Virus genome (UHGV): UHGV-0102464
Source of the DNA: a virus
Length of the DNA: 14,455 nucleotides
Direction: 5' to 3' (one strand)
Below the pieces are notes generated by a model, which was not told the DNA's origin, made no database searches, and was given only the letters and a program-made list of their open reading frames with translations. Positions 1 to 14,455 of the stretch are shown here, piece after piece; positions within the stretch are counted from its first letter, which is position 1; each line of letters begins with the position of its first letter. The position numbers and the translations under genes are program-made.

Positions 1-176
1 CCGGAGGAAAACATGGTCAGGCAAAAGTGTAGCGGTATTAGGCGCAGCTATTTAGTTTTCCATATAAAATAAATAGTTGCGATTGTCTAATCTGTTGTAG
101 TAAATGTGCAGACATTGAAAGAGAAAGACCAGGTTTTTCTTTTCTAACCGAAGGGAAGAAAAGCAAGGGGAAACCG

Positions 177-220
177 GAGAAGCAAGCGCAGCGGCTTCGC
201 AGAGTTAGCCCTTGCTTCTC
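177..220. repeat. GC-rich inverted repeat (10-bp arms GAGAAGCAAG / CTTGCTTCTC, 24-nt spacer) within AT-rich non-coding flank
   Basis: Read directly: arms at 177-186 and 211-220 are exact reverse complements. No T-run follows on either strand, so it is not an obvious intrinsic terminator. Function unknown. Confidence 0.5.
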
Positions 221-930
221 TTATAATTGGCATTATTCATTCAAGAACAATAGGATCTTCGCTTGTACAAGCGAAGCTATAATAAAAACAATCAATTAAT
301 TATTTTAAAAGTATTAAACAAGAACCTATTGACATTCATAAAATACAAGTTATTTATAATGTATGCCATAAATAAAAAGTTTTATGTCATATGTATCCTG
401 CACTATGTGCAGTTAATGTACCACTTGTCCCATAGATGGGAATATTGGAAAGGTTACTTTGTTTTGAAGTAGCCTTTCGTCCTTCAATATTAACGATTAC
501 TTATTGCTATTACCAAGTCCAGTCGAATCGAAGAACATCTTTTATCTGAAACGACTCCTAATACCCGGTTAAAGCCACAATAACTCTCGCATACGTAGAC
601 CAAAGAAAAATTATGATATTAAATATGTGATTTTTTTTAGTGTTAAGTTGAATAATTAAATACTGGAGAGTTTTCTGTGCACTACCAATTGCTGGTTCAT
701 CTGTTCTGCCGCTGATGTTTCTGACGAATCTCCCGGTGACACAGAACTGTCCCTCTCTACCAGCCTTTATTCGACTCAATGTCCGGCTGCTGATACGCAG
801 TTATCCCTTCGTATCAATGACTGACACTTAAACGTAATGCTTTGGTTGCTGGCGTATCTGACAGCTTCTTCGGCGTGAAGGTCGTTGTGTAAGTATACTT
901 CTTGGTTTATTTAGGCTATATAAAACATGA

Positions 931-1827
931 CTATGACTTGCTGTTTTCAGTAAGAGTCTTATCATCCAAAGAATTTATTCTAGAAATTCTTTTTAACTCA
1001 TTAAGATAATCAACCTCGTTTTCTAAGAACCAATGAAGAACTTTAGAATTGCCAAGTAATTTATTAATATATGACTGGATTATAACGAATTTCAACATAT
1101 CTGAACCATACTCGGTTTGAAGCTTTTTCGTTTCTTCCGAAGTTGTTGCCATTTCTTGTTCCAGACGAAGTATGGTTTTTTTTATATCCTTTTTATAGGG
1201 AGTGTTTTTCCCTTTATTTACTATCATCGATGCCGGTGTTGCATCCAAGATGCTCATTGCAAATTTTTTACTATAATTATCAAAATTAATCATTGTACCG
1301 ACTGCTTCAATTTGGCGAATTGGCTTCATTTTCCTCAAAACGTCAAATGTAGCCTTAGGTATAGGTTTATCAGAAAGTTTCGCAATTACACTTGGATCTA
1401 TGCCGTTCATCACATTCGCTTTATCTTTTATGGCATCAACAGATATGCCCAAAGCAGCACTAAGTTTTTCAATTGATACTTTTGCCAGAGACTTAATTAT
1501 CATTCTATGTTCTTCAACTACATTTATATGATTCACTTGTTTGTTAGGAGTGAAAGCATCATCTATGCTCGAAAGTATACATGGGGCTTTTTCTATACCT
1601 AAGTCTTTTAAAGCCTCAACCCTTAAATGGCCATCAAGTATCTTAGTGACATCTTTATCTTTGTCATAGAATACTATTATTGGTTCAATAATACCTAAGC
1701 TTTCGATAGAGGTAACTATTTGATGATATTTATGGCTTCGCTTTACGTTTTCTAATAATTCCTTAGATGGAATTAACTTATTAGTTTCCAGGTAAATAAA
1801 ATTATCGCCAAAACGTATCTGAATCAT
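931..1827 (-). CDS. ParB/Srx-fold (ParBc-like) domain protein, 298 aa, paralog of the upstream gene
   Basis: ORF track 931..1827. The ATG at 1827-1825 overlaps the stop of the upstream gene (ATGA), indicating translational coupling. The N-terminal ~100 aa fit the ParB N-terminal pattern (..SIESLGIIEPIIVF..ILDGHLRVEALKDLGIEKAPCIL..), followed by an HTH-like stretch (KLSAALGISVDAIKDK). The C-terminal ~150 aa are unassigned. Very AT-rich. Confidence 0.7.
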   Translation of the reverse strand: MIQIRFGDNFIYLETNKLIPSKELLENVKRSHKYHQIVTSIESLGIIEPIIVFYDKDKDVTKILDGHLRVEALKDLGIEKAPCILSSIDDAFTPNKQVNHINVVEEHRMIIKSLAKVSIEKLSAALGISVDAIKDKANVMNGIDPSVIAKLSDKPIPKATFDVLRKMKPIRQIEAVGTMINFDNYSKKFAMSILDATPASMIVNKGKNTPYKKDIKKTILRLEQEMATTSEETKKLQTEYGSDMLKFVIIQSYINKLLGNSKVLHWFLENEVDYLNELKRISRINSLDDKTLTENSKS

Positions 1828-2719
1828 TTTAATACCTCTTTGTTTACTGGGGTTAATATCTGAGATGGTAGTTCTGAAAGATTCTCTTGTTCAAGTATAT
1901 GTTGAAAGCTTTTATTCATCATTATGATGTTAAAAATCTCATTTACTATTAGTAGGTTGGTTTTTATGAATTTTGAGTTGTTATAAACAGATTTATGTTC
2001 AGCGATACTATTTTCATAAAGCTCAATCAACTCCTCTGCAGTCATCCTTTTTGATGGTTTGTGATAATAAAATCCGGCTGCTTTTGCACCTTTATTCCCA
2101 ACTGTTCTTTGATTTAGAATGTGTTTTATCTTTATAATGTCCCGACTTTTTATTAATTTTTTATCATATGCTTCGGTAAGAATATCTTGTGCTTCCTCAG
2201 TTTCACATCTTGCAAATTGCACTGCGAGATACAGAGGCAAATTACCCCGTTCGACTGCTGAGAGAAGTTTATGCTCTCCCTTATCAAGTAGCATATTAAT
2301 ACTGCTCACCCAGTTCGATGAATATCCAGTAATCTCACTTATTTCGGAGTCTGAAAGTCCTCTGATTTTCATGTCTTTAATCACCTGTAATAACTCATTA
2401 GAACGTGGTCTTCTCCTTGCAATGTTTTCAACTAAACTCATAACGTAAGCATCTTCTTCTGATACATCTCTTATAATTGCTGGAATAATAGTTTCACCTA
2501 ATGCAACGAGAGCCTCTATTCTCCCTTGACCACAAATTAAAGCATATTTGAAATCGCCTTCATCAATAGCTCTTACGCTTATAGGCTTGCTTAATCCTCT
2601 TTTTTTATGCTTTCCTTTATTTCTTCATGCACTAACTTATTTCTTGTTCGTGGGTTAAGAAATTTTATTTTTGCAATCTCAATTTGAATTATTGGGAATT
2701 CATTTTTTTCAGGCAGCAT
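1824..2719 (-). CDS. ParB/Srx-fold (ParBc-like) domain protein interrupted by a frame change at an A7 homopolymer; full length (~298 aa) only with a -1 frameshift or a 1-nt tract length change
   Basis: The track ORF 1824..2441 (205 aa) begins MSLVENIARRRP.., which is the middle of a ParB domain. ParB homology continues upstream of that ATG in the same frame (RGLSKPISVRAIDEGDFKYALICGQGRIEALVALGETIIPAIIRDVSEEDAYV) up to a stop at 2627-2625, with no in-frame start. A second register begins at ATG 2719-2717, with a GAGGG Shine-Dalgarno about 6 nt upstream and overlapping the last codons of the recombinase gene. It reads MLPEKNEFPIIQIEIAKIKFLNPRTRNKLVHEEIKESIKK and then stops at 2593-2591. The two registers meet in the A7 run (T7 at 2600-2606 on the + strand). 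The joined protein aligns colinearly with the downstream paralog. Confidence 0.6.
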
Positions 2720-4265
2720 ATAGTTCCCTCACTTTCATGCGAGTAATAATTTGTAGAAGTTTATCAAGATTATCAAATCTATAGAGATCTAATCGAATGT
2801 TGTTTGTTTCCGTCATGCACATTTTATTATATTCGTTTTCAATCTTTGGTATGATATAAAAATCAAGAGGTGAAATATTTTGTGAATTCATTCGTATAAC
2901 AATTGTTATGTCTGCTTTCTGTGAGTTATCAAACCGGACTTTCCATCTAAGTTTACCTGATTTCATATGTATGCATTTAGTAACAAGGACGGAAATTAAA
3001 AACTCATCATTGATGTAAAGCATTGGGGCATATTTATACTCGTCTATATGACAGTTACTTTTTAAAATTTCACCCTTAAAATCCTCAATTATCTCTGAGT
3101 GAAATGATCTTAGTGCTTCATTTATTTTGAGATAGCTGTAATCATGTTCTGGCTTATAACCAATCAAAGTATATGCTCTTAAAAGACCACCAAATCGGGT
3201 TCTATAAACAGAAGATGAAGGGCCTGTATCATCTTCATCAATGATAAAGCCTGATAGTTTTCCATTAGATTCTAATTTTTGTTTTAGTTTTTCTAATAGA
3301 TCTTCATTAGTCAAATGAATGGATCGGAGCTGAATTATTTCTTGAGCTTTATTGTGTTTTTTCTTTGAAATAATAGGTTTATATGCCTTGTCACATCTAA
3401 CCCATTCATGTTTGGGGTTTTTTACAAGCCTACTTTTTAATTTAGATGAGGTTTTGTTATATATGTTGTTTCCAATATATTTTTCATTTGTCAAAATTTG
3501 ATGTATTTTTGCACGAGTCCATAATGTTCCATTTTCTGCAGGTATGTTCTGTTCATTTAATCTCTCAGCAATAATGAATTCTGGGACGTTATTATCTATA
3601 AAGAGATCATATATTCTATTTACAATTTTTATTTCATTTTTTGGTCCCGGAATTAATATTACCCTATCTGTTTGAATACTCTTTCTTTTGCGGAAACTCA
3701 ATATTTCTTTAGCTATGCCATTTTCGTCTACTAAAAGACGTCTCAGCCCATAACCAGCCATACCGCCTTGATGATAACCAAGCTTTATTAAATTTACTTG
3801 CCCTATAAATACCTTTTCAGATAAATTCCTGCTGTGATATGCAGCACTAGATCTTTTTATATTCAGTATAACAGAGGACTCTAAAGGGAAATCTTTAGTG
3901 GGTATAGGTTCGGAACAATATATAAGATCTACACCATTTCTCTCAAATAGAAAGGAATAATATGCCGCTTCATCACTATTTTGAAAACGACCAAAACGGC
4001 TCACATCATAAAATAATACAGCCTGTATATCTATTTTCTTTTGTTCTACATCGCTAAGTAACTGCTGCAAAGAATGCCTGCCTACGATACTGACTCCGCT
4101 CTTACCTGCATCATCGTAGGTATAAGCGATTTCCATATTGTTCTTTTCAGCATAATCTTTGATATATTCGGACTGATTATGTAAAGAATATTGCTGATGG
4201 TCGGTAGACATCCTCAAGTACTGCGCGACCCTAACTCTATGATTTTTGTCATTTTCGCTAGCCAT
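2709..4265 (-). CDS. Large serine recombinase (resolvase/invertase catalytic domain + recombinase domain; C-terminal half divergent)
   Basis: 518-aa ORF with an AGGT Shine-Dalgarno about 7 nt upstream of ATG 4265-4263. N-terminus carries the serine-recombinase catalytic motifs: VAQYLRMSTDHQ (Y-x-R-x-S-T-x-x-Q with nucleophile Ser), DDAGKSG, and VLFYDVSRFGR. A recombinase-domain pattern follows (..LIPGPKNEIKIVNRIYDLF..IAERLNEQNIPAENGTLWTRAKIHQILTNEKYIGNNIY..HEWVRCDKAYKPIISKKKHNKAQEI). I saw no CxxC zinc-ribbon pairs in the C-terminal ~220 aa. Confidence 0.85.
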   Translation of the reverse strand: MASENDKNHRVRVAQYLRMSTDHQQYSLHNQSEYIKDYAEKNNMEIAYTYDDAGKSGVSIVGRHSLQQLLSDVEQKKIDIQAVLFYDVSRFGRFQNSDEAAYYSFLFERNGVDLIYCSEPIPTKDFPLESSVILNIKRSSAAYHSRNLSEKVFIGQVNLIKLGYHQGGMAGYGLRRLLVDENGIAKEILSFRKRKSIQTDRVILIPGPKNEIKIVNRIYDLFIDNNVPEFIIAERLNEQNIPAENGTLWTRAKIHQILTNEKYIGNNIYNKTSSKLKSRLVKNPKHEWVRCDKAYKPIISKKKHNKAQEIIQLRSIHLTNEDLLEKLKQKLESNGKLSGFIIDEDDTGPSSSVYRTRFGGLLRAYTLIGYKPEHDYSYLKINEALRSFHSEIIEDFKGEILKSNCHIDEYKYAPMLYINDEFLISVLVTKCIHMKSGKLRWKVRFDNSQKADITIVIRMNSQNISPLDFYIIPKIENEYNKMCMTETNNIRLDLYRFDNLDKLLQIITRMKVRELYAA

Positions 4266-4435
4266 GCACGAAACCTCATGGGTGATTCAATACAATGTAG
4301 AGGATAAAATTGATCAAATTTTAACCGAATTCAACTGTTTTATCATTGATTAGAGCGAATTTGGTAGATCTTCGAGGTGTATGATAATCGAGAAGAGATG
4401 TGAATTATTTAGCTGATATGACCGACAGCTTTCGT

Positions 4436-4485
4436 TATGTGGACTCAATGTCCCCATTTGTAAATGGCTATGCTTAGTCCACATA
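4436..4485. repeat. Nested palindrome: 10-bp inverted repeat TATGTGGACT / AGTCCACATA enclosing inner palindrome CCATTT-GT-AAATGG
   Basis: Read directly: outer arms at 4436-4445 and 4476-4485, inner palindrome at 4454-4467. It lies in the intergenic region between the integrase stop (4548) and the recombinase start (4265). No flanking T-run, so a protein-binding or recombination site is more likely than a terminator. Confidence 0.5.
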
Positions 4486-4547
4486 GGTTAATGGTGTGAT
4501 TATTAATTCTTTAACTAAATCAAGATAGTTAATCCATCATGGGAGAG

Positions 4548-5777
4548 TTATGCGGCAATAACTTTGCATTTTTGAGACGAAACATAGTCACTCCACCATT
4601 GCATGAGAACCACCCGTTCAGTGAGATACTCTGCACGATTGTAGGCTGCAATTATTTCATCTTTCTTCGAGTGGGCAAGGGCGGCTTCTAAGACATCAGT
4701 CCTAAACTTGCCAGACTCCTCAGCAGCCGTTCTAGCAATGGATCGCATACCGTGAGCTACAAGCTCACCTCCGAAGCCCATACGGATTATGGCCGCATTA
4801 GCTGTTTGTTCATGCATGTGATTGAGTGGAGCTTTGATACTGGGGAACACCCACTCTCTATGCCCGCTGATGACTTTCATTAAATCCAAAACTCGCAAAG
4901 CTTCTTTGCTCAGTGGAACTTTGTGAGGCTTCTTCATTTTCATAAACTCCGCCGGGATGTTCCACATGCCAGTTTCAATATCAATATCTGACCATCTTGT
5001 GCGAACAGCTTCACCTGGGCGAACCCATGTGAGAAGTTGCCACTCAATCAGTAGCCTTGTTTCCAAACGGATAGAAGCATTGTTTAGAGCAACCAAGAAG
5101 CGAGGGAGTTCGGAAGGGGGTAATGCTGGCATATTCTGTTTTTTTGGCTTGCTGAACCGTTGCCCCAGGTTGTCTGCCGGGTTGAATTCTATGAGTTCTT
5201 CTGTTGCTGCATAGCGGAAAATTTCATTCAGGCGGGATATGATGCGGCGAAGTGTTTCAAGGACACCTCGTTTTTCTATGGGTTCTAAATGCTGTTTAAG
5301 CATTTTAGGGCGAATCTCCTTAATTGGGGTATCACCCAATGTGGAAAAGATATTTCTCTCTAGGCTTCGCCAGATGTCGTTAGCATGATCTTGGGAGATG
5401 CCTGACGTTTTGACTTTCTCATCAAGCCACTTCTTGGCTACTGCTTGAAATGTATGTTCCGTGGCATCTTTCAGTGCATTGGCTTTTTGGTTGTTATGAA
5501 CTTGGGGGTCTATACCATTTGTAAGCAACGACAAGTATTCATCACGTAAAGCTCGTGCCTTCGCAAGTGTAAGGTGAGGATAGGTTCCTAAGCTCACCTT
5601 AGTTCGCTTTTTGGTCACAGGCACTGCATATCTGAAATACCAATTTTTCTTCCCTCCCTTCGCCAGGGGAGCGATTCGCAACAGCAAACCATCGCCGTCA
5701 AAAAGGTTAACCTCTTTTTCGGCAGGTTTGGTGCTTTTGATTTCAGTGTCAGTGAGCTTCTTAGCGATTTTGGCCAT
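4548..5777 (-). CDS. int: Tyrosine site-specific integrase, P4/IntA (CP4-57-like) family
   Basis: The track ORF runs to 5858, but the conserved N-terminus MAKIAKKLTDTEIKSTKPAEKEVNLFDGDGLLLRIAPLAKGGKKNWYFRY (arm-type DNA-binding domain typical of P4-like integrases) starts at ATG 5777-5775, so I call that start. The C-terminal catalytic region carries the HxxR box (LVAHGMRSIARTAAEE) and the catalytic tyrosine context (IIAAYNRAEYLTERV). Confidence 0.9.
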   Translation of the reverse strand: MAKIAKKLTDTEIKSTKPAEKEVNLFDGDGLLLRIAPLAKGGKKNWYFRYAVPVTKKRTKVSLGTYPHLTLAKARALRDEYLSLLTNGIDPQVHNNQKANALKDATEHTFQAVAKKWLDEKVKTSGISQDHANDIWRSLERNIFSTLGDTPIKEIRPKMLKQHLEPIEKRGVLETLRRIISRLNEIFRYAATEELIEFNPADNLGQRFSKPKKQNMPALPPSELPRFLVALNNASIRLETRLLIEWQLLTWVRPGEAVRTRWSDIDIETGMWNIPAEFMKMKKPHKVPLSKEALRVLDLMKVISGHREWVFPSIKAPLNHMHEQTANAAIIRMGFGGELVAHGMRSIARTAAEESGKFRTDVLEAALAHSKKDEIIAAYNRAEYLTERVVLMQWWSDYVSSQKCKVIAA

Positions 5778-5875
5778 GTTTGGGACCCTCGATTTTAGGA
5801 CCCATCTTCGTGGGTCCCATTCAGGGTGCCATAACTCGTAGTTCTCAGCAATTCTCACTAGACTACAATAGACGT

Positions 5876-5908
5876 AAAAAAGCCCGCAGAGCTTGTGCTG
5901 TGCGGGCT
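5876..5908 (-). terminator. Rho-independent terminator (minus strand) between the ssrA stub and the integrase
   Basis: On the minus strand: 8-bp stem AAGCCCGC/GCGGGCTT-type (plus 5881-5888 pairs with 5901-5908) with a 12-nt loop, followed by a U-run (A-run 5876-5880 on the plus strand). Confidence 0.55.
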
Positions 5909-5943
5909 TAGTAGACTTTACTGAACTTCAGTACATCAATATT

Positions 5944-5978
5944 TGGTGGAGCTGGCGGGAGTTGAACCCGTGTCCGAA
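5944..5978 (-). other. ssrA: 3'-terminal fragment of ssrA (tmRNA): attachment-site core copy, not an intact gene
   Basis: The reverse complement of 5944-5978 reads TTCGGACACGGGTTCAACTCCCGCCAGCTCCACCA. As I recall it, the 3' end of enterobacterial tmRNA is ..TTCGGACGCGGGTTCAACTCCCGCCAGCTCCACCA, so this matches with one mismatch. Similarity stops immediately upstream, and no tmRNA 5' end (GGGGCUG.. acceptor strand) or tag-peptide region lies within 400 nt, so it is a stub. Confidence 0.75.
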
Positions 5979-6303
5979 TAATGCTTAACCTATTGAATAT
6001 TAATGTTTTGTCTTTTTTGAAAGGCCTCAAGTGCATTTTACGTGCATATCGTGGTCCCTCTAACGTCCTGATTCCGTCCAACATTTTGAAATACTCACGA
6101 CGCTACAGAGCTGCTGAAATGGCGGTTTTCCCGTCGTATTCAGCCAGGTATTTACCGTAATTGCGGAACAGCATTTCCGGCCCTTTATGCCCCATCTGCC
6201 CGGCAAGCCAGAAAAGGTTTACGCCCTGGCTAATGTGTCTGGTGGCGAATGTGTGGCGGGTCTGGTACGGGGTACGGTAGCGACACTTTTTTGCACGTTA
6301 GTG

Positions 6304-6333
6304 TTGACTTTGCATAAAAATGTCCTGTATGCT
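6304..6333 (+). promoter_or_regulatory. Sigma70-like promoter (TTGACT -35, 18-bp spacer, TATGCT -10); candidate late promoter pR'-like
   Basis: TTGACT at 6304-6309 and TATGCT at 6328-6333. It is followed about 35-60 nt downstream by an intrinsic terminator, the arrangement of lambdoid pR'/tR' upstream of lysis genes. Confidence 0.5.
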
Positions 6334-6366
6334 TTCCATCGTGGGATATTACGCCTACACGACATC

Positions 6367-6392
6367 AAACCCGCCTCAGCGCGGGTTTTTTT
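6367..6392 (+). terminator. Rho-independent terminator (tR'-like) ending a very short transcript
   Basis: Stem CCCGC(6370-6374)/GCGGG(6381-6385) with loop CTCAGC, followed by T7 (6386-6392). Confidence 0.7.
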
Positions 6393-6456
6393 ATTTCCAG
6401 CAAGGTTTTTCTTCAATGCGTTTGTTATGTTGTGTTTTTTAACTGAGGGTCAGTTG

Positions 6457-6651
6457 ATGAGCGCAGATGAAAACTTGTTGAGTAAAATTCAGGAAGTACG
6501 GACGGTAGAGGATGTGGAGCAAGTCAATTTGGGCCTTTCTAAAGGCTGGGTGATTTTGAAGATCACCGAGAGCTCTACAGTCTGGGAAGATGGCAGCAAA
6601 AGCAGCCTTGTTACATATCACATGGGCAAGCCGAAGGCATTGCCGGTCTGA
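6457..6651 (+). CDS. Hypothetical small protein (64 aa)
   Basis: ATG 6457 with a GAGGG Shine-Dalgarno 7 nt upstream. The track ORF 6187..6651 extends upstream across the promoter and terminator, so the upstream part is rejected. No recognisable motif. Confidence 0.45.
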   Translation: MSADENLLSKIQEVRTVEDVEQVNLGLSKGWVILKITESSTVWEDGSKSSLVTYHMGKPKALPV

Positions 6652-6687
6652 TCAAGCCTTACCAAATCAAAAATTTCAATCATATAT

Positions 6688-6713
6688 AGGCCACCTCACG
6701 GTGGCCTTTTTTG
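6688..6713 (+). terminator. Rho-independent terminator upstream of lysis cassette 1
   Basis: AGGCCACC (6688-6695), loop TCAC, GGTGGCCT (6700-6707), then a T-run to 6712. Confidence 0.75.
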
Positions 6714-6761
6714 TTTCCCCTCAACCTTCTGAGAGGGTCAACAGCAATAAGAGGGGGCAAA

Positions 6762-7166
6762 ATGTCCGCAGAACCGATATCTGCAACGGTAACGGCAGGC
6801 GTGGCCGCCGGCACTACCGGAATCACCTTCGCGACGATGTTTCCAGAAGCGACACCCGCTGTAATGCTTTGCTCACTTGCCGGGGCTGCTCTTTATGTCC
6901 TGAGCAGTGAAGACCACAAAATCTGGAAGCAGATACTGTTCGCGCTCATCTCATTCATTGGTGGAGTCTACTGCGCCGGAACAGCATCTGAAATCATCGC
7001 TGCGCTAATCAATGCGGCATTAAGTCACCTTTCTCCTCCAGTTTCCGTGAAGGTATCTCCAGCTATGGGTGCCCTGCTGGCTTCATCGGTTTCTGTCACC
7101 ATCCTGGCTCGCATCCTCAAACGGTCGAAGACAGGAGACTTACCCGGATTGAAGGGGGAAGAATGA
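6762..7166 (+). CDS. Putative holin / lysis-associated membrane protein (134 aa)
   Basis: ATG 6762 with a GAGGGGG Shine-Dalgarno. Hydrophobic segments (..AGVAAGTTGITFATMF.., ..ILFALISFIGGVYCAGTA.., ..MGALLASSVSVTILARIL..). First gene of a lysis cassette; stop overlaps the next start (ATGA). Confidence 0.5.
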   Translation: MSAEPISATVTAGVAAGTTGITFATMFPEATPAVMLCSLAGAALYVLSSEDHKIWKQILFALISFIGGVYCAGTASEIIAALINAALSHLSPPVSVKVSPAMGALLASSVSVTILARILKRSKTGDLPGLKGEE

Positions 7167-7444
7167 CGTGGCAAACACTGATCCTGAACATTAACGCTGT
7201 TGCATGCATCCTCATCACCATACGCCTGATGTTCTTCAGGAAGCGGAGCTTACGGCGCCGCCGTCTGATGGAGTTTCTGGCCTATGGGCTGATCCTCGCT
7301 CCAGCGTTTACCGCTTTCCGCATCTGGCATGGTGATTACGTGCAGGTCGACTACGGAGAGTTGGTCGTCAACCTTGTTGTCTGCATAGCTGTATGGCGAG
7401 CACGTGGCAACATCGCAAGAATAGCAGGGGAAAGCACAACGTGA
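7163..7444 (+). CDS. Small membrane protein (93 aa), holin/antiholin-like
   Basis: ATG 7163 overlaps the upstream stop, with a GAAGGGGG Shine-Dalgarno. Two hydrophobic helices separated by a basic stretch (RKRSLRRRRL). Lies between the putative holin and the endolysin. Confidence 0.4.
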   Translation: MTWQTLILNINAVACILITIRLMFFRKRSLRRRRLMEFLAYGLILAPAFTAFRIWHGDYVQVDYGELVVNLVVCIAVWRARGNIARIAGESTT

Positions 7445-8070
7445 ACCAATCACAATTTCAAAAGGCGGCTGGCATTAGCGCCGGGCTCGCTTCGCGCTGG
7501 TTTTCGCATATCGATGCTGCAGTGAAGGAATTCGGCATAACCGCGCCGCTCGATCAGGCCATGTTTATCGCGCAGATGGGCCATGAGTCCGGCGGTTTCA
7601 CCCGGCTGGTGGAAAACCTGAACTATGCGGCAGAAAACCTGGTACCTACGTTCGGCAAGCATCGCATTACTGCGCAGCAGGCCGCCGCACTCGGCAGAAC
7701 GGCAACGCAACCGGCAAATCAGAAAGCGATAGCCAATCTGGTTTACGGCGGTGAGTGGGGCAAAAAGAACCTGGGCAACCAGGTTGCTGGTGATGGCTGG
7801 AAATATCGCGGCCGAGGCCTTAAGCAAATCACCGGGCTTAGCAACTATCGCAGTTGCGGCCAGGCTCTCAAACTGGATCTGGTTTCGTATCCAGAACTAC
7901 TGGAACGAGATGAATACGCTGCGCGCTCCGCCGCATGGTTCTACGTCTCGCACGGATGCCTGCTCCATTCAGGCGATGTGGAGCGCGTCACGCTGCTTAT
8001 CAATGGCGGACGTAACGGGCTGGATAAACGCCGCGCGCTGTTTAACCTGGCGAAGTCTGTGCTGGTGTGA
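7441..8070 (+). CDS. Endolysin, glycoside hydrolase family 19 (chitinase-like lysozyme)
   Basis: GH19 hallmark motifs: FIAQMGHESGGF and YRGRGLKQITGLSNYR (compare the GRGPxQ(L/I)(S/T)xNY motif of GH19 chitinases). Start placed at GTG 7441, which overlaps the upstream stop (GTGA); the alternative ATG 7393 lacks a Shine-Dalgarno. Confidence 0.8.
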   Translation: MNQSQFQKAAGISAGLASRWFSHIDAAVKEFGITAPLDQAMFIAQMGHESGGFTRLVENLNYAAENLVPTFGKHRITAQQAAALGRTATQPANQKAIANLVYGGEWGKKNLGNQVAGDGWKYRGRGLKQITGLSNYRSCGQALKLDLVSYPELLERDEYAARSAAWFYVSHGCLLHSGDVERVTLLINGGRNGLDKRRALFNLAKSVLV

Positions 8071-8077
8071 GGTCACT

Positions 8078-8347
8078 ATGGGATTAGAAACAATCGTCGG
8101 TATTGCTGCCCTGATAATGGCAGCTATCGCTGGTGCTTTTGGCATTGGTCATTCACGCGGCACCAGCAAAGCGGAAGCCAAAGCCGATCAGCAGCGCACT
8201 GAAGAACGTGCAACAGCTACTGAAGCTGTTGCTGAACGCCGGGTAGAGACAACAAAAGGAGCCAGGGATGTACAGCAAACTGTTAATCATCTTCCTGATG
8301 ACGATGTTGACCGTGAGTTGCGCGAAAACTTTACCCGCAAAACCTGA
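8078..8347 (+). CDS. Rz-like inner-membrane spanin (i-spanin) component, copy 1
   Basis: ATG 8078, 8 nt after the endolysin stop. N-terminal transmembrane helix (IVGIAALIMAAIAGAFGIG) then a charged helical region. The track ORF 7751..8347 is the same frame extended upstream into the endolysin and is rejected. Assignment is by position and architecture. Confidence 0.6.
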   Translation: MGLETIVGIAALIMAAIAGAFGIGHSRGTSKAEAKADQQRTEERATATEAVAERRVETTKGARDVQQTVNHLPDDDVDRELRENFTRKT

Positions 8348-8489
8348 ATTAACGGACACAGCCTGTGACTGGGTGGACATTATCTACCTCACTGAACACG
8401 ATATTGCCGTGCTGGATAAGCAGACGAAGCGGGACATATTGGTGCACAATAAATCAGTGCAGGCTAACTGTGCAAAAAAAATAAATTGA
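8268..8489 (+). CDS. Rz1-like outer-membrane lipoprotein spanin (o-spanin), overlapping the 3' end of the Rz-like gene in another frame, copy 1
   Basis: ATG 8268 with an AAAAGGAG Shine-Dalgarno. Signal peptide plus lipobox-like ..MTMLTVSCAK; several Cys. The ORF begins inside the Rz-like gene and extends past it (P2 lysB/lysC-like overlap). Its sequence is conserved in copy 2. Confidence 0.6.
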   Translation: MYSKLLIIFLMTMLTVSCAKTLPAKPELTDTACDWVDIIYLTEHDIAVLDKQTKRDILVHNKSVQANCAKKIN

Positions 8490-8590
8490 AAATGAGAAAT
8501 GAAAGTAGTAAATATGTGCCAAGCTGTGATGAAACCAGCAATGAAGCACGTTCTTTAATCCGCATTCTCTGAAAAAGAGAAAGAATTATA

Positions 8591-8618
8591 AGCCTCGGTT
8601 TAATACCGGGGCTTTTTT
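8591..8618 (+). terminator. Rho-independent terminator after lysis cassette 1
   Basis: AGCCTCGG (8591-8598), loop TTTAATA, CCGGGGCT (8606-8613), then a T-run to 8618. Confidence 0.7.
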
Positions 8619-8768
8619 GTATCTGCATTTCACCGCGCACCGCAGCGCATTCAATCACGTCGAACCCAACCTTTTGGAATGAGCCGTTGAGGAGTCAGTT
8701 AGTGCTGGCGAGCCTCGACGGGCTGATTTCCTATGCGACAAAGGTTCATTTCAAAGAAGGTAAACGCA

Positions 8769-9356
8769 ATGCACGACTCAACAAGCGGGTTGGTCTTTGG
8801 AGTTGGCAAACTCGATGTACACCCCGTTATCAATAAAGGGGTAAAACTCAGGTCATACAGAGTATGGTTTGGGATGCTGAAAAGATGCTACGGAAAGGGA
8901 ACGGCATTTAAAAGTGAATACCAAGGATGCTCAGTCGATGAGCAATGGCACAAGTTCAGTAATTTTCAGCAATTTTACGACAAGAATTACTTCGAAGGCG
9001 CCGAGTTAGACAAGGATTTGCTTTATCTGGGTAATAAAGTTTACTCAAAAGATAGGTGCGTGTTCATCCCGTCATTCCTCAACGCCTTTATCACTGTTAG
9101 GCCGCCAAGAAACAACAACCTTCCGATTGGCGTATACCAAGTTAGCAACAGCCGGAAGTATCAATCAGAAATACAAGTTAATGGTGAAAGAAAATATCTA
9201 GGACTCTTTGAAGATCCGCATGAAGCTCACTCCGCTTGGTTTAATGAAAAGCTGAATATGGCAATTTCCTACAAAGAGTTGTGCGATTCTCTGCACCCTG
9301 ATTTGTATGGCGGACTCATAACAAAAATAGAAAGCATGCGAGTCTATCCGGATTAA
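8769..9356 (+). CDS. Hypothetical protein with AP2-like DNA-binding domain in C-terminal half
   Basis: ATG 8769 with a GAAGG Shine-Dalgarno 8 nt upstream (the track start 8733 has none). The C-terminal stretch IGVYQVSNSRKYQSEIQVNGERKYLGLFEDPHEAHSAWFNEK resembles the AP2 domain found in phage HNH/AP2 proteins. The N-terminal half (..SYRVWFGMLKRCYGK..) is unassigned. Confidence 0.5.
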   Translation: MHDSTSGLVFGVGKLDVHPVINKGVKLRSYRVWFGMLKRCYGKGTAFKSEYQGCSVDEQWHKFSNFQQFYDKNYFEGAELDKDLLYLGNKVYSKDRCVFIPSFLNAFITVRPPRNNNLPIGVYQVSNSRKYQSEIQVNGERKYLGLFEDPHEAHSAWFNEKLNMAISYKELCDSLHPDLYGGLITKIESMRVYPD

Positions 9357-9481
9357 TAAATTAATAATTCTACATTTTCAGGGCCCTTGGGAATCACCCT
9401 CGACGCTTTGTTGGTAAATCAGCCCGACGGCCCTGACCTTCTCACACACAGCTTCCCGATCTTTCATCGGAGGCGGTAACT

Positions 9482-9793
9482 ATGGCTAAGCGTATGCAAG
9501 ACAAAGAGAGCATTGCCGGGATGTCCTGGCTGGTTCTGCTGATCATTGCTTGCTGGGGTGGACTTGTCCGCTACCTGATAGATGTGAAGCAGAGCAAGGC
9601 AACATGGAGCTTGATCAATGCTCTTGCCCAAATGGTGGTTTCAGGGTTTACCGGCGTTATTGCTGGCCTGGTGAGCATTGAAAGCGGACTGAGCATTTAC
9701 ATGATTCTGGCAACCGCGGGGATAAGCGGCGCGATGGGCTCCGTAGCGCTCACGTATTTCTGGGAACGAATCACCGGAGTGAAAGCACAATGA
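9482..9793 (+). CDS. Holin (103 aa), lysis cassette 2
   Basis: ATG 9482 with a GGAGG Shine-Dalgarno 8 nt upstream. Hydrophobic helices; stop overlaps the endolysin start (ATGA). Confidence 0.6.
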   Translation: MAKRMQDKESIAGMSWLVLLIIACWGGLVRYLIDVKQSKATWSLINALAQMVVSGFTGVIAGLVSIESGLSIYMILATAGISGAMGSVALTYFWERITGVKAQ

Positions 9794-10329
9794 CAGCAGA
9801 CCAGATTATCGAGGGGATCCTCGGCAAGGAGGATGGTTATGTCGATCATCCGTCGGATAAAGGCGGGCCGACCCGCTGGGGCATCACGCAGACCACCGCC
9901 CGTGCACATGGCTACACCGGTGATATGCGGAACCTGCCCAGGGAAACAGCAAAGCAAATCCTGCTGAGCGATTACTGGACCGGCCCCCGGTTTGACCAGG
10001 TGGCAGCTCTATCTACGTTACTGGCAGATGAGCTTTGCGACACTGGCGTGAACATGGGGCCATCTGTAGCCAGTAAGTTTTTCCAGCGCTGGCTGACCGC
10101 AATGAATATGCGCGGAAAGCTGTATCCCGATCTGATTCCGGATGGCGCCATTGGTCCCCGAACCATCACCGCGCTTAAGGGATACCTTTCCGCCCGCGGG
10201 AAAGAGGGTGAACAGGTTCTGTTGCGTGCGCTGAACTGCAGCCAGGGTGCCAGATACCTCGAACTGGCGGAGGGCCGCGAAGCCAACGAGGATTTTCTCT
10301 ACGGCTGGGTTAAGGAGCGTGTCCTGTGA
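9790..10329 (+). CDS. Endolysin, glycoside hydrolase family 108 N-terminal domain + peptidoglycan-binding C-terminal domain
   Basis: N-terminal EDGYVDHPSDKGGPTRWGIT matches the GH108 signature (EGGYVDDPxDxGGxTxxGIT). C-terminal ..IPDGAIGPRTITALKGYL.. resembles the PG-binding-3 type domain. Confidence 0.8.
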   Translation: MTADQIIEGILGKEDGYVDHPSDKGGPTRWGITQTTARAHGYTGDMRNLPRETAKQILLSDYWTGPRFDQVAALSTLLADELCDTGVNMGPSVASKFFQRWLTAMNMRGKLYPDLIPDGAIGPRTITALKGYLSARGKEGEQVLLRALNCSQGARYLELAEGREANEDFLYGWVKERVL

Positions 10330-10670
10330 AGATGATCATTTTCGCTTTGCTTGTGCTGGTGGCTGTGCTCGTTCTGTTACTTCTGCGCAAATATACCCGG
10401 CTGGAGTTCGTAGGGCATGCCAGCTTGCTGCTGAAAACGTGGTCTGTAAAGCTGGGAGCTATCGGCGCGCTGGTTGGTGTATGGGCGCAGTCGTTCCCGG
10501 ATGCTGCGCTGCACGCCTGGGCGGTGCTGCCGCCGGATATCAAAAACATCCTGCCGCCAAACATCGTTGCGTTGATTAGCCCTGCGCTGGTGGTGCTGGC
10601 CGTACTATCGCAATACGTACGCCAGCCAGCATTGAAAGAAAAGGCCGACGAACTGAAGGAGCAGCAATGA
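10326..10670 (+). CDS. Membrane protein between endolysin and spanins (LysA/antiholin-like position)
   Basis: Start GTG 10326 (overlaps the endolysin stop) or ATG 10332, with an AAGGAG Shine-Dalgarno at 10310-10315. Strongly hydrophobic (IIFALLVLVAVLVLLLL.., ..LVALISPALVVLAVL..). Stop overlaps the Rz-like start (ATGA). Confidence 0.5.
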   Translation: MKMIIFALLVLVAVLVLLLLRKYTRLEFVGHASLLLKTWSVKLGAIGALVGVWAQSFPDAALHAWAVLPPDIKNILPPNIVALISPALVVLAVLSQYVRQPALKEKADELKEQQ

Positions 10671-10942
10671 GCTTTGAAATTATCGCGGGACTGGTGGTCG
10701 TCATCCTGGGTGCTATTGCTGGCGCGTTCGGCATTGGTCATGCTCGCGGGGCCAGTAAGGCGAAAGCCAAAGCTGATCAGCAACGTACCGAAGAGAACGC
10801 CGCTGCTACTGTCGCCGCGGCAGAACGCCGTGCTGAAGTCACGAAAGGGGCCAGCGATGTACAGGAAGACGTTAAGCGTATGGGCGATGACGATGTTGAT
10901 CGGGAGTTGCGCGAAAAGTTTACCCGCCCCGGTAGTCGTTGA
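10667..10942 (+). CDS. Rz-like i-spanin component, copy 2
   Basis: ATG 10667 with a GAAGGA Shine-Dalgarno. Roughly two-thirds to three-quarters identical to copy 1 by eye (AIAGAFGIGH..KADQQRTEE..DDDVDRELRE.FTR conserved). Confidence 0.6.
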   Translation: MSFEIIAGLVVVILGAIAGAFGIGHARGASKAKAKADQQRTEENAAATVAAAERRAEVTKGASDVQEDVKRMGDDDVDRELREKFTRPGSR

Positions 10943-11081
10943 CACGGCCTGCAGCTGGGTGCGGATCATCTACCTGACTGACCACGATATCGATGTGTTG
11001 GATAAGCAGACCAAGCGCGACATTCTGGCGCACAACAAAGCAGTGCAGGCCAACTGCCAGAGCATTACCCCTACTCATTGA
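10857..11081 (+). CDS. Rz1-like o-spanin lipoprotein, copy 2 (overlapping and extending past the Rz-like gene)
   Basis: ATG 10857 with an AAAGGGG Shine-Dalgarno. MYRKTLSVWAMTMLIGSCAK.. then DTACSWVRIIYLTDHDIDVLDKQTKRDILAHNKAVQANC, closely matching copy 1. The track ORF 10674..11081 is the same frame with a spurious upstream extension. Confidence 0.6.
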   Translation: MYRKTLSVWAMTMLIGSCAKSLPAPVVVDTACSWVRIIYLTDHDIDVLDKQTKRDILAHNKAVQANCQSITPTH

Positions 11082-11249
11082 GTTAAATAAATGGCCTCAT
11101 CCTTGAGGTCCACGAGTAAGTAAACGCAAGGTCTTTTATGTAATGGCTCTTTTAGCCTAGGAGCCAACTCAGAAACAACAAGCGTAAGCGGTAGATATTT
11201 ATGATTTTTTTTCTGCTGCTTATCCACAACCTACCGAAGAGGCTAAGAA

Positions 11250-11366
11250 ATGATTGCAACCATAGGAACCATTATCGTTTGGACGCTCATTGTTGTGGAT
11301 GGAGTTATTGGGATTCTGTGCGCGTTTATCGGTCTTATGTTCCTCATTAACTTTCCCATTCGCTAA
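11250..11366 (+). CDS. Possible small hydrophobic peptide (38 aa), not in ORF track
   Basis: ATG 11250 preceded by GAAGAGG. Translation MIATIGTIIVWTLIVVDGVIGILCAFIGLMFLINFPIR is a single predicted transmembrane helix. Too short for the track; existence uncertain. Confidence 0.3.
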   Translation: MIATIGTIIVWTLIVVDGVIGILCAFIGLMFLINFPIR

Positions 11367-11470
11367 CCCCACCAAGGGATAAACCAGCCTTCATCCCCAC
11401 GTGAGGATATTACAGAAGCCACTGACTGAGTGGCTTAGATAATGTTCCCGACATCGCACAGAGGTAAAAC

Positions 11471-11716
11471 ATGGCAGAGATCACACCGGCAGAACAGATT
11501 CGACTGAATCTGCTTTCCACCCTGAACTACGACACCGCGGCCGCTGCTAAGGCGATTGAGTTCGTCCAGGATAGCCAGCTCAAATATCAGCTGTTCATCC
11601 AGCAGTACAACCGCGTGACAACTGAATCAGAAGTTGTGGCGCGGACCATCAAAGCGGTTCAGGAGTCGGCGGAAGCGTTAGCGCTGTTTGATACCGCGGC
11701 TGAGCAGGCCAGTTAA
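11471..11716 (+). CDS. Hypothetical protein (81 aa)
   Basis: ATG 11471 with a GAGGT Shine-Dalgarno at 11461-11465. No recognisable motif. Confidence 0.5.
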   Translation: MAEITPAEQIRLNLLSTLNYDTAAAAKAIEFVQDSQLKYQLFIQQYNRVTTESEVVARTIKAVQESAEALALFDTAAEQAS

Positions 11717-11719
11717 GGC

Positions 11720-11755
11720 ATTACAGCAGGCATTCACGTAGTGCCTGTGATAATG
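11720..11755 (+). repeat. 36-bp repeated element, copy 1 (ATTACAGCAGGCATTCAC-GT-AGTGCCTGTGATAATG) with internal inverted repeat and extended -10-like TGTGATAAT
   Basis: Read directly; 34/36 identical to the copy at 12061-12096. Contains CAGGCA..TGCCTG inverted arms and TG-n-GATAAT. Confidence 0.6.
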
Positions 11756-12025
11756 TTAAAGCTCCTGTATAAGGGGCAGTTGTATGATGTCATGCAACGA
11801 AGCAACCAAACTATGGAAAGTCCGGGTAATGGTTTTGGAGTGAATGTGACGTTTCGCAACGATATAGATGGCTACTTTTTCCTGTTGCTTAGTATGTGGC
11901 CAGTGCTAATGGTTTTATTCCTGGGATTGTCCTCTGCATTTTACGGTGTGTTAATGCCTAAAACGGCAATTGCTTGTCTGGTGATCGCTGCCGCTGTGGG
12001 TACCGTTGGGTGGTTCTATGGATAG
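11741..12025 (+). CDS. Hypothetical small membrane protein (start uncertain)
   Basis: The track ORF begins at GTG 11741 inside the repeat; the true start may be an internal ATG. C-terminal part is hydrophobic (FFLLLSMWPVLMVLFLGL.., ..IACLVIAAAVGTVGW..). Confidence 0.4.
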   Translation: MPVIMLKLLYKGQLYDVMQRSNQTMESPGNGFGVNVTFRNDIDGYFFLLLSMWPVLMVLFLGLSSAFYGVLMPKTAIACLVIAAAVGTVGWFYG

Positions 12026-12060
12026 GCATCCTGGAAACATTTGGTCAGGTTATAGACTGT

Positions 12061-12096
12061 ATTACAGCAGGCATTCACTGAGTGCCTGTGATAATG
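12061..12096 (+). repeat. 36-bp repeated element, copy 2 (ATTACAGCAGGCATTCAC-TG-AGTGCCTGTGATAATG)
   Basis: Differs from copy 1 only at the 2 central bases; lies about 40 nt upstream of the AT-rich moron start. Confidence 0.6.
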
Positions 12097-12134
12097 ATAA
12101 ATTACTTACTCACACCTTTTGTGAGGTAAGAGAA

Positions 12135-12431
12135 ATGAAGCATCTTGTACATTCTTTTTTATCTGTATCATCTGACGGTGCAACTATTAAGTACGAAATA
12201 TATTCTCAAGATCAGGAATTAGGACATTTAAAGAAGATCCCGGAGGGTAGTTGTCAGATCATTAAGTCGATATATCAAAAGGATAGCAATAGTTTTAAGT
12301 TAATAGACTTAAACGTAAATGTTGAGGATTTATTTAAGGCAAATCAACCCAAGCCAAATACTTGGTACTCGGATGGGCAAGACCGTGTAAATCTCGACAT
12401 GCTTATCAATTATCTTGATAACTTAAAATAA
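12135..12431 (+). CDS. AT-rich moron-like gene, hypothetical protein (98 aa)
   Basis: ATG 12135 with a GAGGT Shine-Dalgarno about 7 nt upstream. Composition is markedly more AT-rich than flanking phage genes. Preceded by the repeat/promoter-like element and followed by a strong intrinsic terminator. No recognisable motif. Confidence 0.6.
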   Translation: MKHLVHSFLSVSSDGATIKYEIYSQDQELGHLKKIPEGSCQIIKSIYQKDSNSFKLIDLNVNVEDLFKANQPKPNTWYSDGQDRVNLDMLINYLDNLK

Positions 12432-12450
12432 TTGTAAGTTGAAATCATTT

Positions 12451-12478
12451 AGACCTCGAATCCCGAGGTCTTTTTTTT
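12451..12478 (+). terminator. Rho-independent terminator after the moron
   Basis: AGACCTCG (12451-12458), loop AATCC, CGAGGTCT (12464-12471), then T8 to 12478. Confidence 0.8.
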
Positions 12479-12487
12479 GGAGGTTTT

Positions 12488-12721
12488 ATGCGCCTGACTG
12501 TTCTCAGTAACGACCCTGGTGAACGTATATGGCCTAGCCGTGAACGCATAACGGTGTACCTCAACGGTGTCGAGGTCAAGTACGTTTTTACCGCCGATGA
12601 TCAGAAGGGCGAAGTTATCGCTGCTACGCTCGACTGTCTTGGCAACCTCATAGCCGAGAATGGCGAGATTAAGCGCCAGAAGCTGTTAGGTCAGGTGAGG
12701 ATAGAGCGATGCCCGCGCTAA
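12488..12721 (+). CDS. Hypothetical protein (77 aa) immediately upstream of and overlapping the HNH endonuclease gene
   Basis: ATG 12488 with a GGAGG Shine-Dalgarno just upstream; overlaps the HNH start by 13 nt. Confidence 0.5.
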   Translation: MRLTVLSNDPGERIWPSRERITVYLNGVEVKYVFTADDQKGEVIAATLDCLGNLIAENGEIKRQKLLGQVRIERCPR

Positions 12722-13059
12722 TACCCCGCGCCTGCCGTAAGCGTGGATGTCCTGGAACTACCACAGACCGCTTAGGCTACTGCGAGAAGCACCGCAACGA
12801 AGGCTGGCAACAGCATCAACAGGGAAAGAGTCGCCACGAGCGTGGCTACGGTAGCCAGTGGGATATCAGGCGTGCGCGCATCCTGAAACGCGACAACCAT
12901 TTATGCCAGAACTGCCTTCGCAGCGGGCGAGCTGTCGCAGCAAAGACGGTTGACCACATCAAGGCCAAGGCTCATGGGGGTACCGATGACGATTCGAACC
13001 TCGAAAGCCTGTGCTGGCCTTGCCATCGAACGAAAACCGGGCGCGAACGCATAAAGTGA
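12709..13059 (+). CDS. HNH endonuclease (phage packaging-associated type)
   Basis: Cys/His-rich: ..CRKRGCPGTT..GYCEKH.. and the HNH core ..VDHIKAKAHGGTDDDSNLESLCWPCH... AGGTGAGGA Shine-Dalgarno before ATG 12709. Position directly upstream of the terminase small subunit is typical. Confidence 0.85.
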   Translation: MPALIPRACRKRGCPGTTTDRLGYCEKHRNEGWQQHQQGKSRHERGYGSQWDIRRARILKRDNHLCQNCLRSGRAVAAKTVDHIKAKAHGGTDDDSNLESLCWPCHRTKTGRERIK

Positions 13060-13215
13060 TATCGATTCTCATTTGAGGCGAGGCAGAGGGGGCGGGGTCA
13101 AATCCCTGACGGCAAAGGCCAAAAGGACCGCCGCCTAACCTTTTTTCACACCGCCGCAGGTTAGAAAACTTTTTTTTGGGGTCCCCCATCCAATGATTAA
13201 TAGGAGTTTTCGATT

Positions 13216-13713
13216 ATGCCAGGACCACCGAAAACCCCGACACATCTGGCTTTAGTGAAGGGGAACCCATCCAAGCGCCCGATCAATAAGAACGAGCCAA
13301 AACCCCCGTCAGGGGTCCCCCCAATACCGAAACATTTCGATAAACAGGGTAAGTACTGGTTCAAACGGATTGGTGAGGAACTTGATGCCGTCGGCGTGTT
13401 GACCACGCTGGATGCTAAAGCGCTGGAGTTGTTGATAGAAGCCTATGTTGAATACCGGCATCACTGCGACACGCTTGATCGTGAAGGTTACACCTATGCC
13501 GTCTACAGCGAAGATGATTCAGATGAAGGAGGGGAGCGGGAAATCAGAATGATCAAACCGCACCCTGCAGCAGTCATGAAGGCTGACGCGTGGAAACGGA
13601 TCAGAGCGATGCTGAGCGAATTCGGCATGACACCTGCCAGCCGATCAAAGGTTGGTGCAAAAGACCCGGCAGAAGCCGACCCACTGGAAGAATTTCTTAA
13701 AAAGCGCAAATGA
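13216..13713 (+). CDS. Terminase small subunit (P27-family-like)
   Basis: ATG 13216 with a TAGGAG Shine-Dalgarno. ..LDAKALELLIEAYVEY.. pattern and placement between the HNH gene and the large terminase gene. Confidence 0.75.
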   Translation: MPGPPKTPTHLALVKGNPSKRPINKNEPKPPSGVPPIPKHFDKQGKYWFKRIGEELDAVGVLTTLDAKALELLIEAYVEYRHHCDTLDREGYTYAVYSEDDSDEGGEREIRMIKPHPAAVMKADAWKRIRAMLSEFGMTPASRSKVGAKDPAEADPLEEFLKKRK

Positions 13714-13716
13714 TGA

Positions 13717-14455
13717 ATGGCAACCGTTGCAGATGGATTCCGCTACGCCGAGCGCGTGGTATCTGGCGATATCGTTGCTGGCGAACTGGTGCGTCTTGCG
13801 TGCCAGCGGTTCTTTCATGATTTAGAGCACGGCCCGGAGCGCGGTGTTTATTTTGATGAAGGCCGCGCCCAGCACGTTCTCGATTTTTATAACTTCGTCC
13901 CCCATGTGAAGGGGCACTTGACCGGCAAGCCGATCGAGTTGATGGACTGGCACACCTTCATCCTGATTAACCTTTTCGGGTTTGTCGTCCCGCTGATAGA
14001 TGAAATAACGTTTGAGAGCATTCTTGACGACGATGGCGACCCCATGTTTGTGCGTCGCTTTCGTACCGCCTATGACGAAGTAGCGCGTAAAAATGCAAAA
14101 TCAACGCTTTCGTCTGGCATCGGGCTTTATATGACTGGTGCCGACGGTGAGGGTGGTTCTGAGGTTTATTCCGCAGCAACAACCAGGGATCAGGCCCGCA
14201 TCGTGTTTGATGATGCGAAGCGCATGATTAAGCTGGCTCCGAAAACACTGGGCCGGTTGTTTGGTAGTAACAAGTTGAATATTCACCAGGAGCGGACGGG
14301 TTCAAAATTCGAACCTGTAGCCAGTGATGCGAATAACCTCGACGGCCTTAATATTCACTGCGGGATCGTTGATGAGCTTCACGCACATAAAACCCGTGAC
14401 GTCTGGGAAGTTCTCGAAACGGCAACCGGCGCCCGACTACAGTCTCTTATCTTCG
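13717..14455 (+). CDS. Terminase large subunit, 5' portion (open to window end; absent from ORF track because no stop is reached)
   Basis: Translated by hand from ATG 13717: MATVADGFRYAERVVSGDIVAGELVRLACQRFFHDLEHGPERGVYFDE... with no stop to 14455. Deviant Walker-A-like ..VARKNAKST.. and Walker-B-like ..HCGIVDELHAH... The adjacent ATG 13713 is in a frame that terminates after 36 codons. Confidence 0.8.
   Translation, partial: MATVADGFRYAERVVSGDIVAGELVRLACQRFFHDLEHGPERGVYFDEGRAQHVLDFYNFVPHVKGHLTGKPIELMDWHTFILINLFGFVVPLIDEITFESILDDDGDPMFVRRFRTAYDEVARKNAKSTLSSGIGLYMTGADGEGGSEVYSAATTRDQARIVFDDAKRMIKLAPKTLGRLFGSNKLNIHQERTGSKFEPVASDANNLDGLNIHCGIVDELHAHKTRDVWEVLETATGARLQSLIF

Follow-up and report, generated by a model that had tools for sequence, protein, structure and literature searches.

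Layout of the locus

The stretch of DNA analyzed here (the window) is the complete 14,455-base SPAdes-style metagenome contig ERZ1303435 NODE_1799, which has a coverage of 4.3x. From left to right, it carries a chromosomal island that ends with its integrase gene, a short copy (stub) of the 3′ end of the tmRNA gene ssrA, a non-coding phage segment, the last codons of a phage integrase gene, and late genes of a lambdoid prophage. The coordinates of all features are compiled in the table.

Table. Features of the window in positional order, with the basis of each assignment or a remark on it.
Position	Strand	Feature	Basis or remark
53–4547	-	Island cargo beside the integrase gene	Pfam
931–1827	-	Other ParB/RepB-like gene of the pair	Pfam
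1824–2720	-	ParB/RepB-like gene, frameshifted at 2599	Pfam
2709–4265	-	Large serine recombinase	Pfam
4548–5777	-	Island integrase, IntA/P4 type, intact, 409 aa	Pfam, NCBIfam
5874–5909	-	Intrinsic terminator, AAGCCCGCACAGCACAAGCTCTGCGGGCTT plus T run	Terminator scan
5910–5943	-	Spacer, B′ side of the junction	Follows ssrA in island-only genomes
5944–5970	-	att core, 27-nt identity block CGGGTTCAACTCCCGCCAGCTCCACCA	3′ half of the tmRNA T-arm and acceptor 3′ strand, to CCA
5971–5978	-	8-nt ssrA-like extension TTCGGACA, part of the phage P arm	A at 5971, G in ssrA
5979–6102	-	Phage P arm, non-coding, from int stop codon to core	94.5% identical to the LMessi P arm
6103–6285	-	Prophage integrase remnant, last 60 codons plus stop	tblastn, Pfam; keeps the RHxxxxRH...H...Y part of the catalytic domain
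6278–6287		Deletion junction	int homology stops at 6286; post-Q homology begins at 6278–6280
6304–6333	+	Late-promoter-like site TTGACT-18-TATGCT	Consensus scan
6367–6388	+	Terminator-like hairpin	Consensus scan
6457–8489	+	Late genes of the prophage remnant	Contig gene calls, Pfam, PHROGs; includes a 64-aa ORF
6762–7166, 7163–7444	+	Two holins	Pfam/PHROGs
7441–8070	+	GH19 endolysin	Pfam/PHROGs
8078–8347, 8268–8489	+	Rz/Rz1-like spanins	Pfam/PHROGs
8733–14455	+	Further lambdoid late region	Pfam/PHROGs; absent from isolates sharing 53–8771
8733–9356	+	HNH homing-endonuclease-like ORF between the lysis cassettes	phrog_953, 1e-69
9482–11081	+	Second lysis cassette	Pfam/PHROGs
12709–13059	+	HNH gene	Pfam/PHROGs
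13216–13713 (small)	+	Small terminase, then start of the large terminase	Pfam/PHROGs

The island to the left of the stub

Positions 136–5978 of the window are 99.8% identical to an island that is present in many complete E. coli genomes, e.g., E24377A, and that directly adjoins intact ssrA in those genomes (675 records with a best match of at least 99% identity). The gene order in such island-only genomes is smpB, ssrA, terminator, a 409-aa integrase, a large serine recombinase, two ParB/RepB-like genes, and variable cargo, and at position 5978, where the match to the window ends, the E24377A-type genomes continue into the intact ssrA gene. The spacer next to the core is identical to the E24377A sequence past the CCA of intact ssrA and differs from the P′ arm that follows ssrA in strain E94. 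From position 5943 downwards, the window reads AATATTGATG, as opposed to CTTTTGA... in a P′ arm of the type found in phage LMessi. The terminator that follows the spacer has the same place behind intact ssrA in E24377A, a related one follows ssrA in K-12, and it ends ssrA wherever the island abuts the intact gene.

A preliminary description of the locus had named this site as a target of IntA-family integrases, and the integrase beside the stub is of this type: the protein scores 444.6 bits with NCBIfam model NF007246 (PRK09692; cutoff, 434) and contains Arm-DNA-bind_3 (PF13356), Phage_int_M (PF22022), and Phage_integrase (PF00589), i.e., it combines the curated score with the arm-binding, central, and catalytic domains of the IntA/P4-type class. 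It is 48% identical to K-12 IntA over 401 aa and shows no differences from the copies in E24377A and UGGI01. The real start of the gene is at 5777, as opposed to the GTG at 5858 that opens the longest ORF.

The module conserved beside ssrA (931–5777) consists of the integrase, the large serine recombinase, and the two ParB/RepB-like genes. Past this module the cargo varies: E24377A and E94 have a type I restriction-modification system, and the isolates described below encode a UvrA-like ABC ATPase. The window matches E24377A only from position 136 and the isolates only from position 53. At 2599, a T-run within one of the ParB/RepB-like genes (1824–2720, minus strand) is one base shorter than in the isolates, leading to a frameshift, which, given the 4.3x coverage, may reflect faulty sequencing and not a genuine pseudogene. 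Over the spacer and terminator (5876–5953, minus strand), the 3′ ∼57 nt of Rfam model RF02763, which describes the Salmonella island sRNA IsrM, align almost perfectly. An IsrM gene at this place was rejected, as the match reaches 46 bits compared to a gathering score of 376 and reflects the shared terminator only. The alignment suggests that IsrM may end at a homologous terminator upstream of a related integrase gene.

A fragment of ssrA joined to a phage attP arm

The reverse complement of positions 5944–5978 is TTCGGACACGGGTTCAACTCCCGCCAGCTCCACCA (35 nt), and the last 35 nt of ssrA are TTCGGACGCGGGTTCAACTCCCGCCAGCTCCACCA in E. coli E24377A, E94, and K-12. Alignment to ssrA of these three strains bears out the previously claimed match to the tmRNA 3′ end with one mismatch: 34 of the 35 nt are identical, the sole mismatch is located at window position 5971, and the similarity ends as abruptly as had been described, at 5978/5979. 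The 27 nt from 5944 to 5970 match ssrA exactly and terminate at CCA. This 27-nt core is found without mismatch in the intact ssrA genes of E24377A, E94, and K-12, in the stub of E94, and in the attP site of phage LMessi; in 200 dinucleotide-preserving shuffles it had no match, even when up to three mismatches were allowed. There is a single copy of the 27-mer in the window, in agreement with the earlier statement that the other core copy lies outside.

An intact tmRNA gene is absent from the window, as also claimed before: ARAGORN predicted no tmRNA or tRNA gene, and an Rfam scan of the window at gathering thresholds returned nothing. When searched in E-value mode, the Rfam tmRNA model (RF00023) gave a 5′-truncated match of 34.8 bits (gathering score, 47) that is confidently aligned only over the last ∼35 positions. 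Measured against a tmRNA gene, which is full-length, has a tRNA-like domain with both acceptor strands, a tag reading frame, and pseudoknots, and reaches the gathering score, the stub falls short. It shows the near-identity to a target gene 3′ end by which Islander recognizes a displaced fragment (34/35 nt, 27 of them exact). A 58-aa ORF that runs across the stub (5908–6084, minus strand) was treated as spurious. We suggest that the stub be annotated as an att junction between two elements and not as a decayed copy of the tmRNA gene.

To the right of the spacer, positions 5944–6283 align without gaps to the int-attP region of phage LMessi (PP925823.1) with 95.0% identity, the integrase 3′ end, the P arm, and the 35-nt block being colinear. 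The LMessi attP contains the same 35-nt ssrA-like block as the window (35/35), including the A at 5971, and because it carries this identical mismatch to ssrA, the base at 5971 is of phage origin. Within the 8-nt extension, the P arms of E94, PhiR12_5, and phi467 differ, yet all of them have an A right before CGGG, where ssrA has a G. As far as the alignments tell, the mismatch at 5971 is the edge of the identity common to attP and ssrA, and the crossover would have occurred within the 27 bp between 5971 and the CCA. The locus is a clean worked example in which one phage-derived base difference, at 5971, limits where the crossover would have taken place to the 27 bp common to attP and ssrA.

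The P arm contains a paired ATGCAC-N5-ATGCAC motif (6031–6047) that is kept in the P and P′ arms of both LMessi and E94 and represents a candidate arm-type Int binding site. The phage integrases of LMessi and E94 possess an Arm-DNA-bind_2 domain (PF12167) in addition to the catalytic domain. Moreover, a hypothetical attP composed of the integrase 3′ end, P arm, and core of the window plus the P′ arm of E94 is covered to 98% by one contiguous stretch of LMessi. The window has one feature of a lambda-type attP, a core flank colinear with the attP arm of a sequenced phage, LMessi, that encodes an integrase with an arm-binding domain. LMessi differs from the window in that its core is followed by a P′ arm, i.e., its attP is uninterrupted, and in that it encodes a full-length integrase of 415 aa. 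Because the left flank is that of the island and the right flank that of an LMessi-like attP, the stub is the place where a phage arm, the core, and the island meet, which makes it a displaced tDNA fragment.

Tandem layout in E94 and other genomes

The ssrA locus of E94 and STEC306-308 (NZ_CP119740.1 and others) shares with the window the island integrase, the 27-nt stub, and the prophage integrase family. In E94, smpB and intact ssrA are followed by a P′ arm with its own terminator and by a ∼40-kb lambdoid prophage with genes for tail, head, lysis, Q, replication, and immunity; then come the prophage integrase gene, the P arm, the 27-nt stub, the old ssrA terminator, the island integrase gene, and the island. 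Hence, the intact target gene that Islander requires on the same replicon and in the same orientation is present in this relative, ∼40 kb off at the other end of the prophage. The E94 locus has exactly two core copies, and a third one at the distal end of the island was not found in 20 kb of E94. The E94 prophage differs from that of the window by its full 390-aa integrase, its complete early region, and a P arm that is only ∼82% identical.

Of 5426 complete E. coli genomes, 12 contain the segment made up of P arm, stub, and island to at least 80%. In E94 and the 11 others, the island lies behind the stub and a lambdoid prophage lies between the stub and intact ssrA, and the P arms in this prophage-bearing arrangement have diverged (82–96% identity). 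The P arm/stub/island junction is also contained in the phage records PhiR12_5 and phi467. Both records have extra genes of unknown function between P arm and int (PhiR12_5, 1924–3043; phi467, 5890–6798), which are found neither in the window nor in LMessi; a literature search on the PhiR12 phages yielded nothing relevant. An exact-pattern scan of GTDB species representatives for the P-side bases (GACA) joined to the core and island junction gave no matches.

The preliminary description had proposed a tandem array of elements at ssrA. The E94 layout, the occurrence of the island beside intact ssrA elsewhere, the phage attP arm to the right of the stub, and the IntA-type score of the island integrase all speak for this proposal. 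Its underlying rule, that an integrase gene sits beside the intact target gene, applies to the P4/IntA-type island but breaks down for the upstream phage, whose own integrase gene lies beside the displaced fragment.

An internal deletion that is shared by isolate genomes

The prophage integrase remnant had been overlooked in the preliminary description. On the minus strand of 6112–6282, 54 of 57 residues (95%) are identical to residues 332–388 of the 390-aa E94 prophage integrase in tblastn; the stop codon is at 6103–6105, and the remnant corresponds to profile positions 128–165 of Pfam Phage_integrase. At the nucleotide level, it is 96.5% identical to LMessi int. Islander looks for an integrase gene between the target gene and the displaced fragment; relatives carry full-length integrases at this position (390 aa in E94, 415 aa in LMessi), and the window has the remnant without any upstream part of the gene. 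The 60-codon remnant should be annotated as a pseudogene.

Rightward from 6278–6280, the window matches the DNA immediately past the Q antiterminator gene in phages Fostie and AsXd-1. The deletion partners share imperfect microhomology only, GCG(C)ACAC..TTTTTT. One internal deletion, extending from integrase codon ∼330 through Q, explains this arrangement, and it leaves the prophage without integrase, excisionase, immunity, replication, and late activator genes. The promoter-like and terminator-like elements to the right of the junction (6304–6388) are at the PR′/tR′ position of lambdoid phages, and their place directly after Q, as judged from Fostie and AsXd-1, suggests that they may function accordingly.

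Positions 53–8771 of the window are contiguous and 99.8% identical in GCA_900450495.1 (a 5.2-Mb contig), GCA_012074045.1, GCA_037022885.1, and one Logan run, and the stub, the integrase remnant, and the junction at 6286 are contiguous in the isolate assemblies. The occurrence of the deletion junction in isolate genomes, at 99.8% identity, rules out an origin from faulty assembly. Over 53–8727, there are only seven differences between the isolates and the window; at five of them (1585, 3356, 4282, 4776, and 6737) the window has G where the isolates have A, a one-sided pattern that may reflect error or damage in low-coverage data. None of the complete E. coli genomes has the 6286 junction or an isolate-type remnant, and an exact-pattern scan of JGI metagenome contigs for the deletion junction gave no matches. 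In five isolate/Logan loci, ARAGORN detected no tmRNA within 12 kb to the right of the junction, a distance that does not reach the far end of the prophage in the isolates sharing it. In GCA_042748925.1 (locus 7655–8721), an IS3-family transposase stands where the window has the island integrase, the stub, and the integrase remnant; window positions 5096–6787 are missing and there is no core copy, indicating further erosion of the same locus.

From ∼8727, the start of the HNH-like ORF, the window departs gradually from the near-identical isolates. This ORF (8733–9356) has no Pfam match and separates two complete lysis cassettes in tandem (6762–8489 and 9482–11081). The first cassette is composed of holin_8, holin_3_7, the GH19 endolysin, and spanins, the second of holin_3_3, a GH108 endolysin, DUF7940, and spanins. 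The i-spanins of the two cassettes are homologous, each matching phrog_1026.

Origin of the junction

Taken together, the stub is very probably a displaced ssrA 3′ fragment at the integrase-proximal junction of a lambdoid prophage that lies ahead of an island already in place, with the phage P arm followed by the 27-bp core and then by DNA that used to lie downstream of ssrA. In our model, the island with its IntA/P4-type integrase would have been located directly behind ssrA when an LMessi-like temperate phage, whose attP carried a 35-nt copy of the ssrA 3′ end and whose integrase had an arm-binding domain, recombined with the 27-bp core of ssrA. The ssrA gene would have been rebuilt with the P′ arm and terminator of the phage at the far prophage end, outside the window, so that the original last 27 nt, the terminator, and the island were displaced downstream by about one prophage length. 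A later internal deletion would have taken out the integrase gene up to codon ∼330 together with the early region and Q, thereby fusing the integrase 3′ end to the late-promoter region and presumably rendering the prophage unable to excise itself or to activate its own late genes. Some points weigh against this model: the window ends at 14455 without an intact ssrA gene or a P′ junction, so that for the far end we rely on the relatives; the 12 kb to the right of the junction in the isolates contain no tmRNA gene; the contig has a coverage of only 4.3x and is unlike the isolates to the right of 8771; and E94 shows no distal ssrA fragment of the island.

The same final structure would arise in the reverse order, with the phage integrating at ssrA first and the IntA-type island later entering the displaced fragment, since both elements use the last ssrA nucleotides; the preliminary description had offered such an insertion into a core copy of a resident element as an option. 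P4-type elements at ssrA have repeats within CGCCAGCTCCACCA (PMC10107115 Table 1), and the stub contains CGCCAGCTCCACCA intact. However, the island abuts intact ssrA in many complete genomes (the 675 records mentioned above), whereas P arm, stub, and island are joined in only 12 of 5426 genomes, and there with P arms that have diverged to 82–96% identity. Several separate arrivals of phages ahead of an island already in place are by far the simpler account, and we consider the reverse order very improbable.

We give hardly any weight to two further explanations. If the contig were a metagenome assembly chimera, a free phage attP could have been joined to an ssrA-island locus via the 27–35-nt repeat, and the junction at 6286 would be artificial as well. 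The contig is indeed a SPAdes-style assembly at 4.3x, and the 6286 junction was found neither in complete E. coli genomes nor in JGI metagenome contigs. Nevertheless, in isolate assemblies, one of them with a contig of 5.2 Mb, the stub runs without a break into the remnant and the 6286 junction, with only seven differences over 53–8727, and the length of the microhomology at 6286 is well below that of any k-mer used in assembly. Alternatively, the window might represent an unintegrated phage or plasmid and the stub merely its attP, as phage attP sites do carry the 3′ part of the target gene, as seen in LMessi, and as the right half of the window is filled with phage late genes. Yet on one side of the core the window has no P′ arm but the island known from behind ssrA on E. 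coli chromosomes. In addition, only 60 codons of the phage integrase are left and both Q and the early region are missing, so that the window contains no viable phage genome.

Comparison with other elements at ssrA

The displaced-fragment signature and tandem arrays at tRNA and tmRNA genes are standard (Hudson, Lau & Williams 2015, PMC4383910). An integrated element is bounded by the regenerated target gene at the near end and by a 3′ piece of this gene at the far end, and successive integrations at one tDNA lead to arrays with a fragment between two elements (PMC4383910). Islander lists 125 arrays of at least two among 3919 islands, with tmRNA as the most enriched target (PMC4383910). The displaced fragment between prophage and island does not differ in kind from Islander/TIGER tandem arrays, although here the upstream member is without most of its integrase and the downstream member without a detectable distal fragment. 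By the strict Islander criterion, which asks for an integrase and a tDNA fragment in every member, the second tandem member would be incomplete: the island has an intact integrase, but its distal end lies outside the window, and no distal ssrA fragment of the island was found in 20 kb of E94.

In K-12, ssrA and its terminator are directly followed by a codirectional P4-type integrase gene, intA of CP4-57, and the island integrase gene here is arranged likewise; both proteins match the same NCBIfam model, and they are 48% identical to each other. Excision of CP4-57 deletes T357 of ssrA, and in Salmonella Typhimurium LT2 both Fels-2 (P2-type integrase) and Stm27X (P4-type integrase) are ssrA-associated (PMC10107115 and its Table 1). 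CP4-57 differs from the island in the window in being another island with other cargo. We take the upstream phage at the LT2 ssrA gene to be P2-like, unlike the lambdoid one described here. Williams 2003, ‘Traffic at the tmRNA gene’, is said to cover displaced tDNA fragments and tandem arrays at the tmRNA gene and reportedly places Fels-2 and Stm27X in tandem at LT2 ssrA.

Implications for the ssrA integration hotspot

The structure described here is an ordinary and already known product of serial integration at the ssrA hotspot. What it adds is that the upstream prophage has been grounded by a deletion in which most of its own integrase gene was lost. The int-less and Q-less remnant might still take part in phage exchange, a speculative idea that we think is more probably wrong than right and that we raise because its P-arm/core junction is 95% identical to a live attP and the paired arm motifs are intact. 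If true, Int/Xis and Q provided in trans by an LMessi-like phage on entry could excise or transactivate the remnant, or such a phage could recombine with it. The differing late regions past the shared segment (53–8727) would fit module replacement after the deletion. The consequences are mostly for annotation: the contig should not be treated as a phage genome, as it belongs to the ssrA integration hotspot on a chromosome like that of E. coli.
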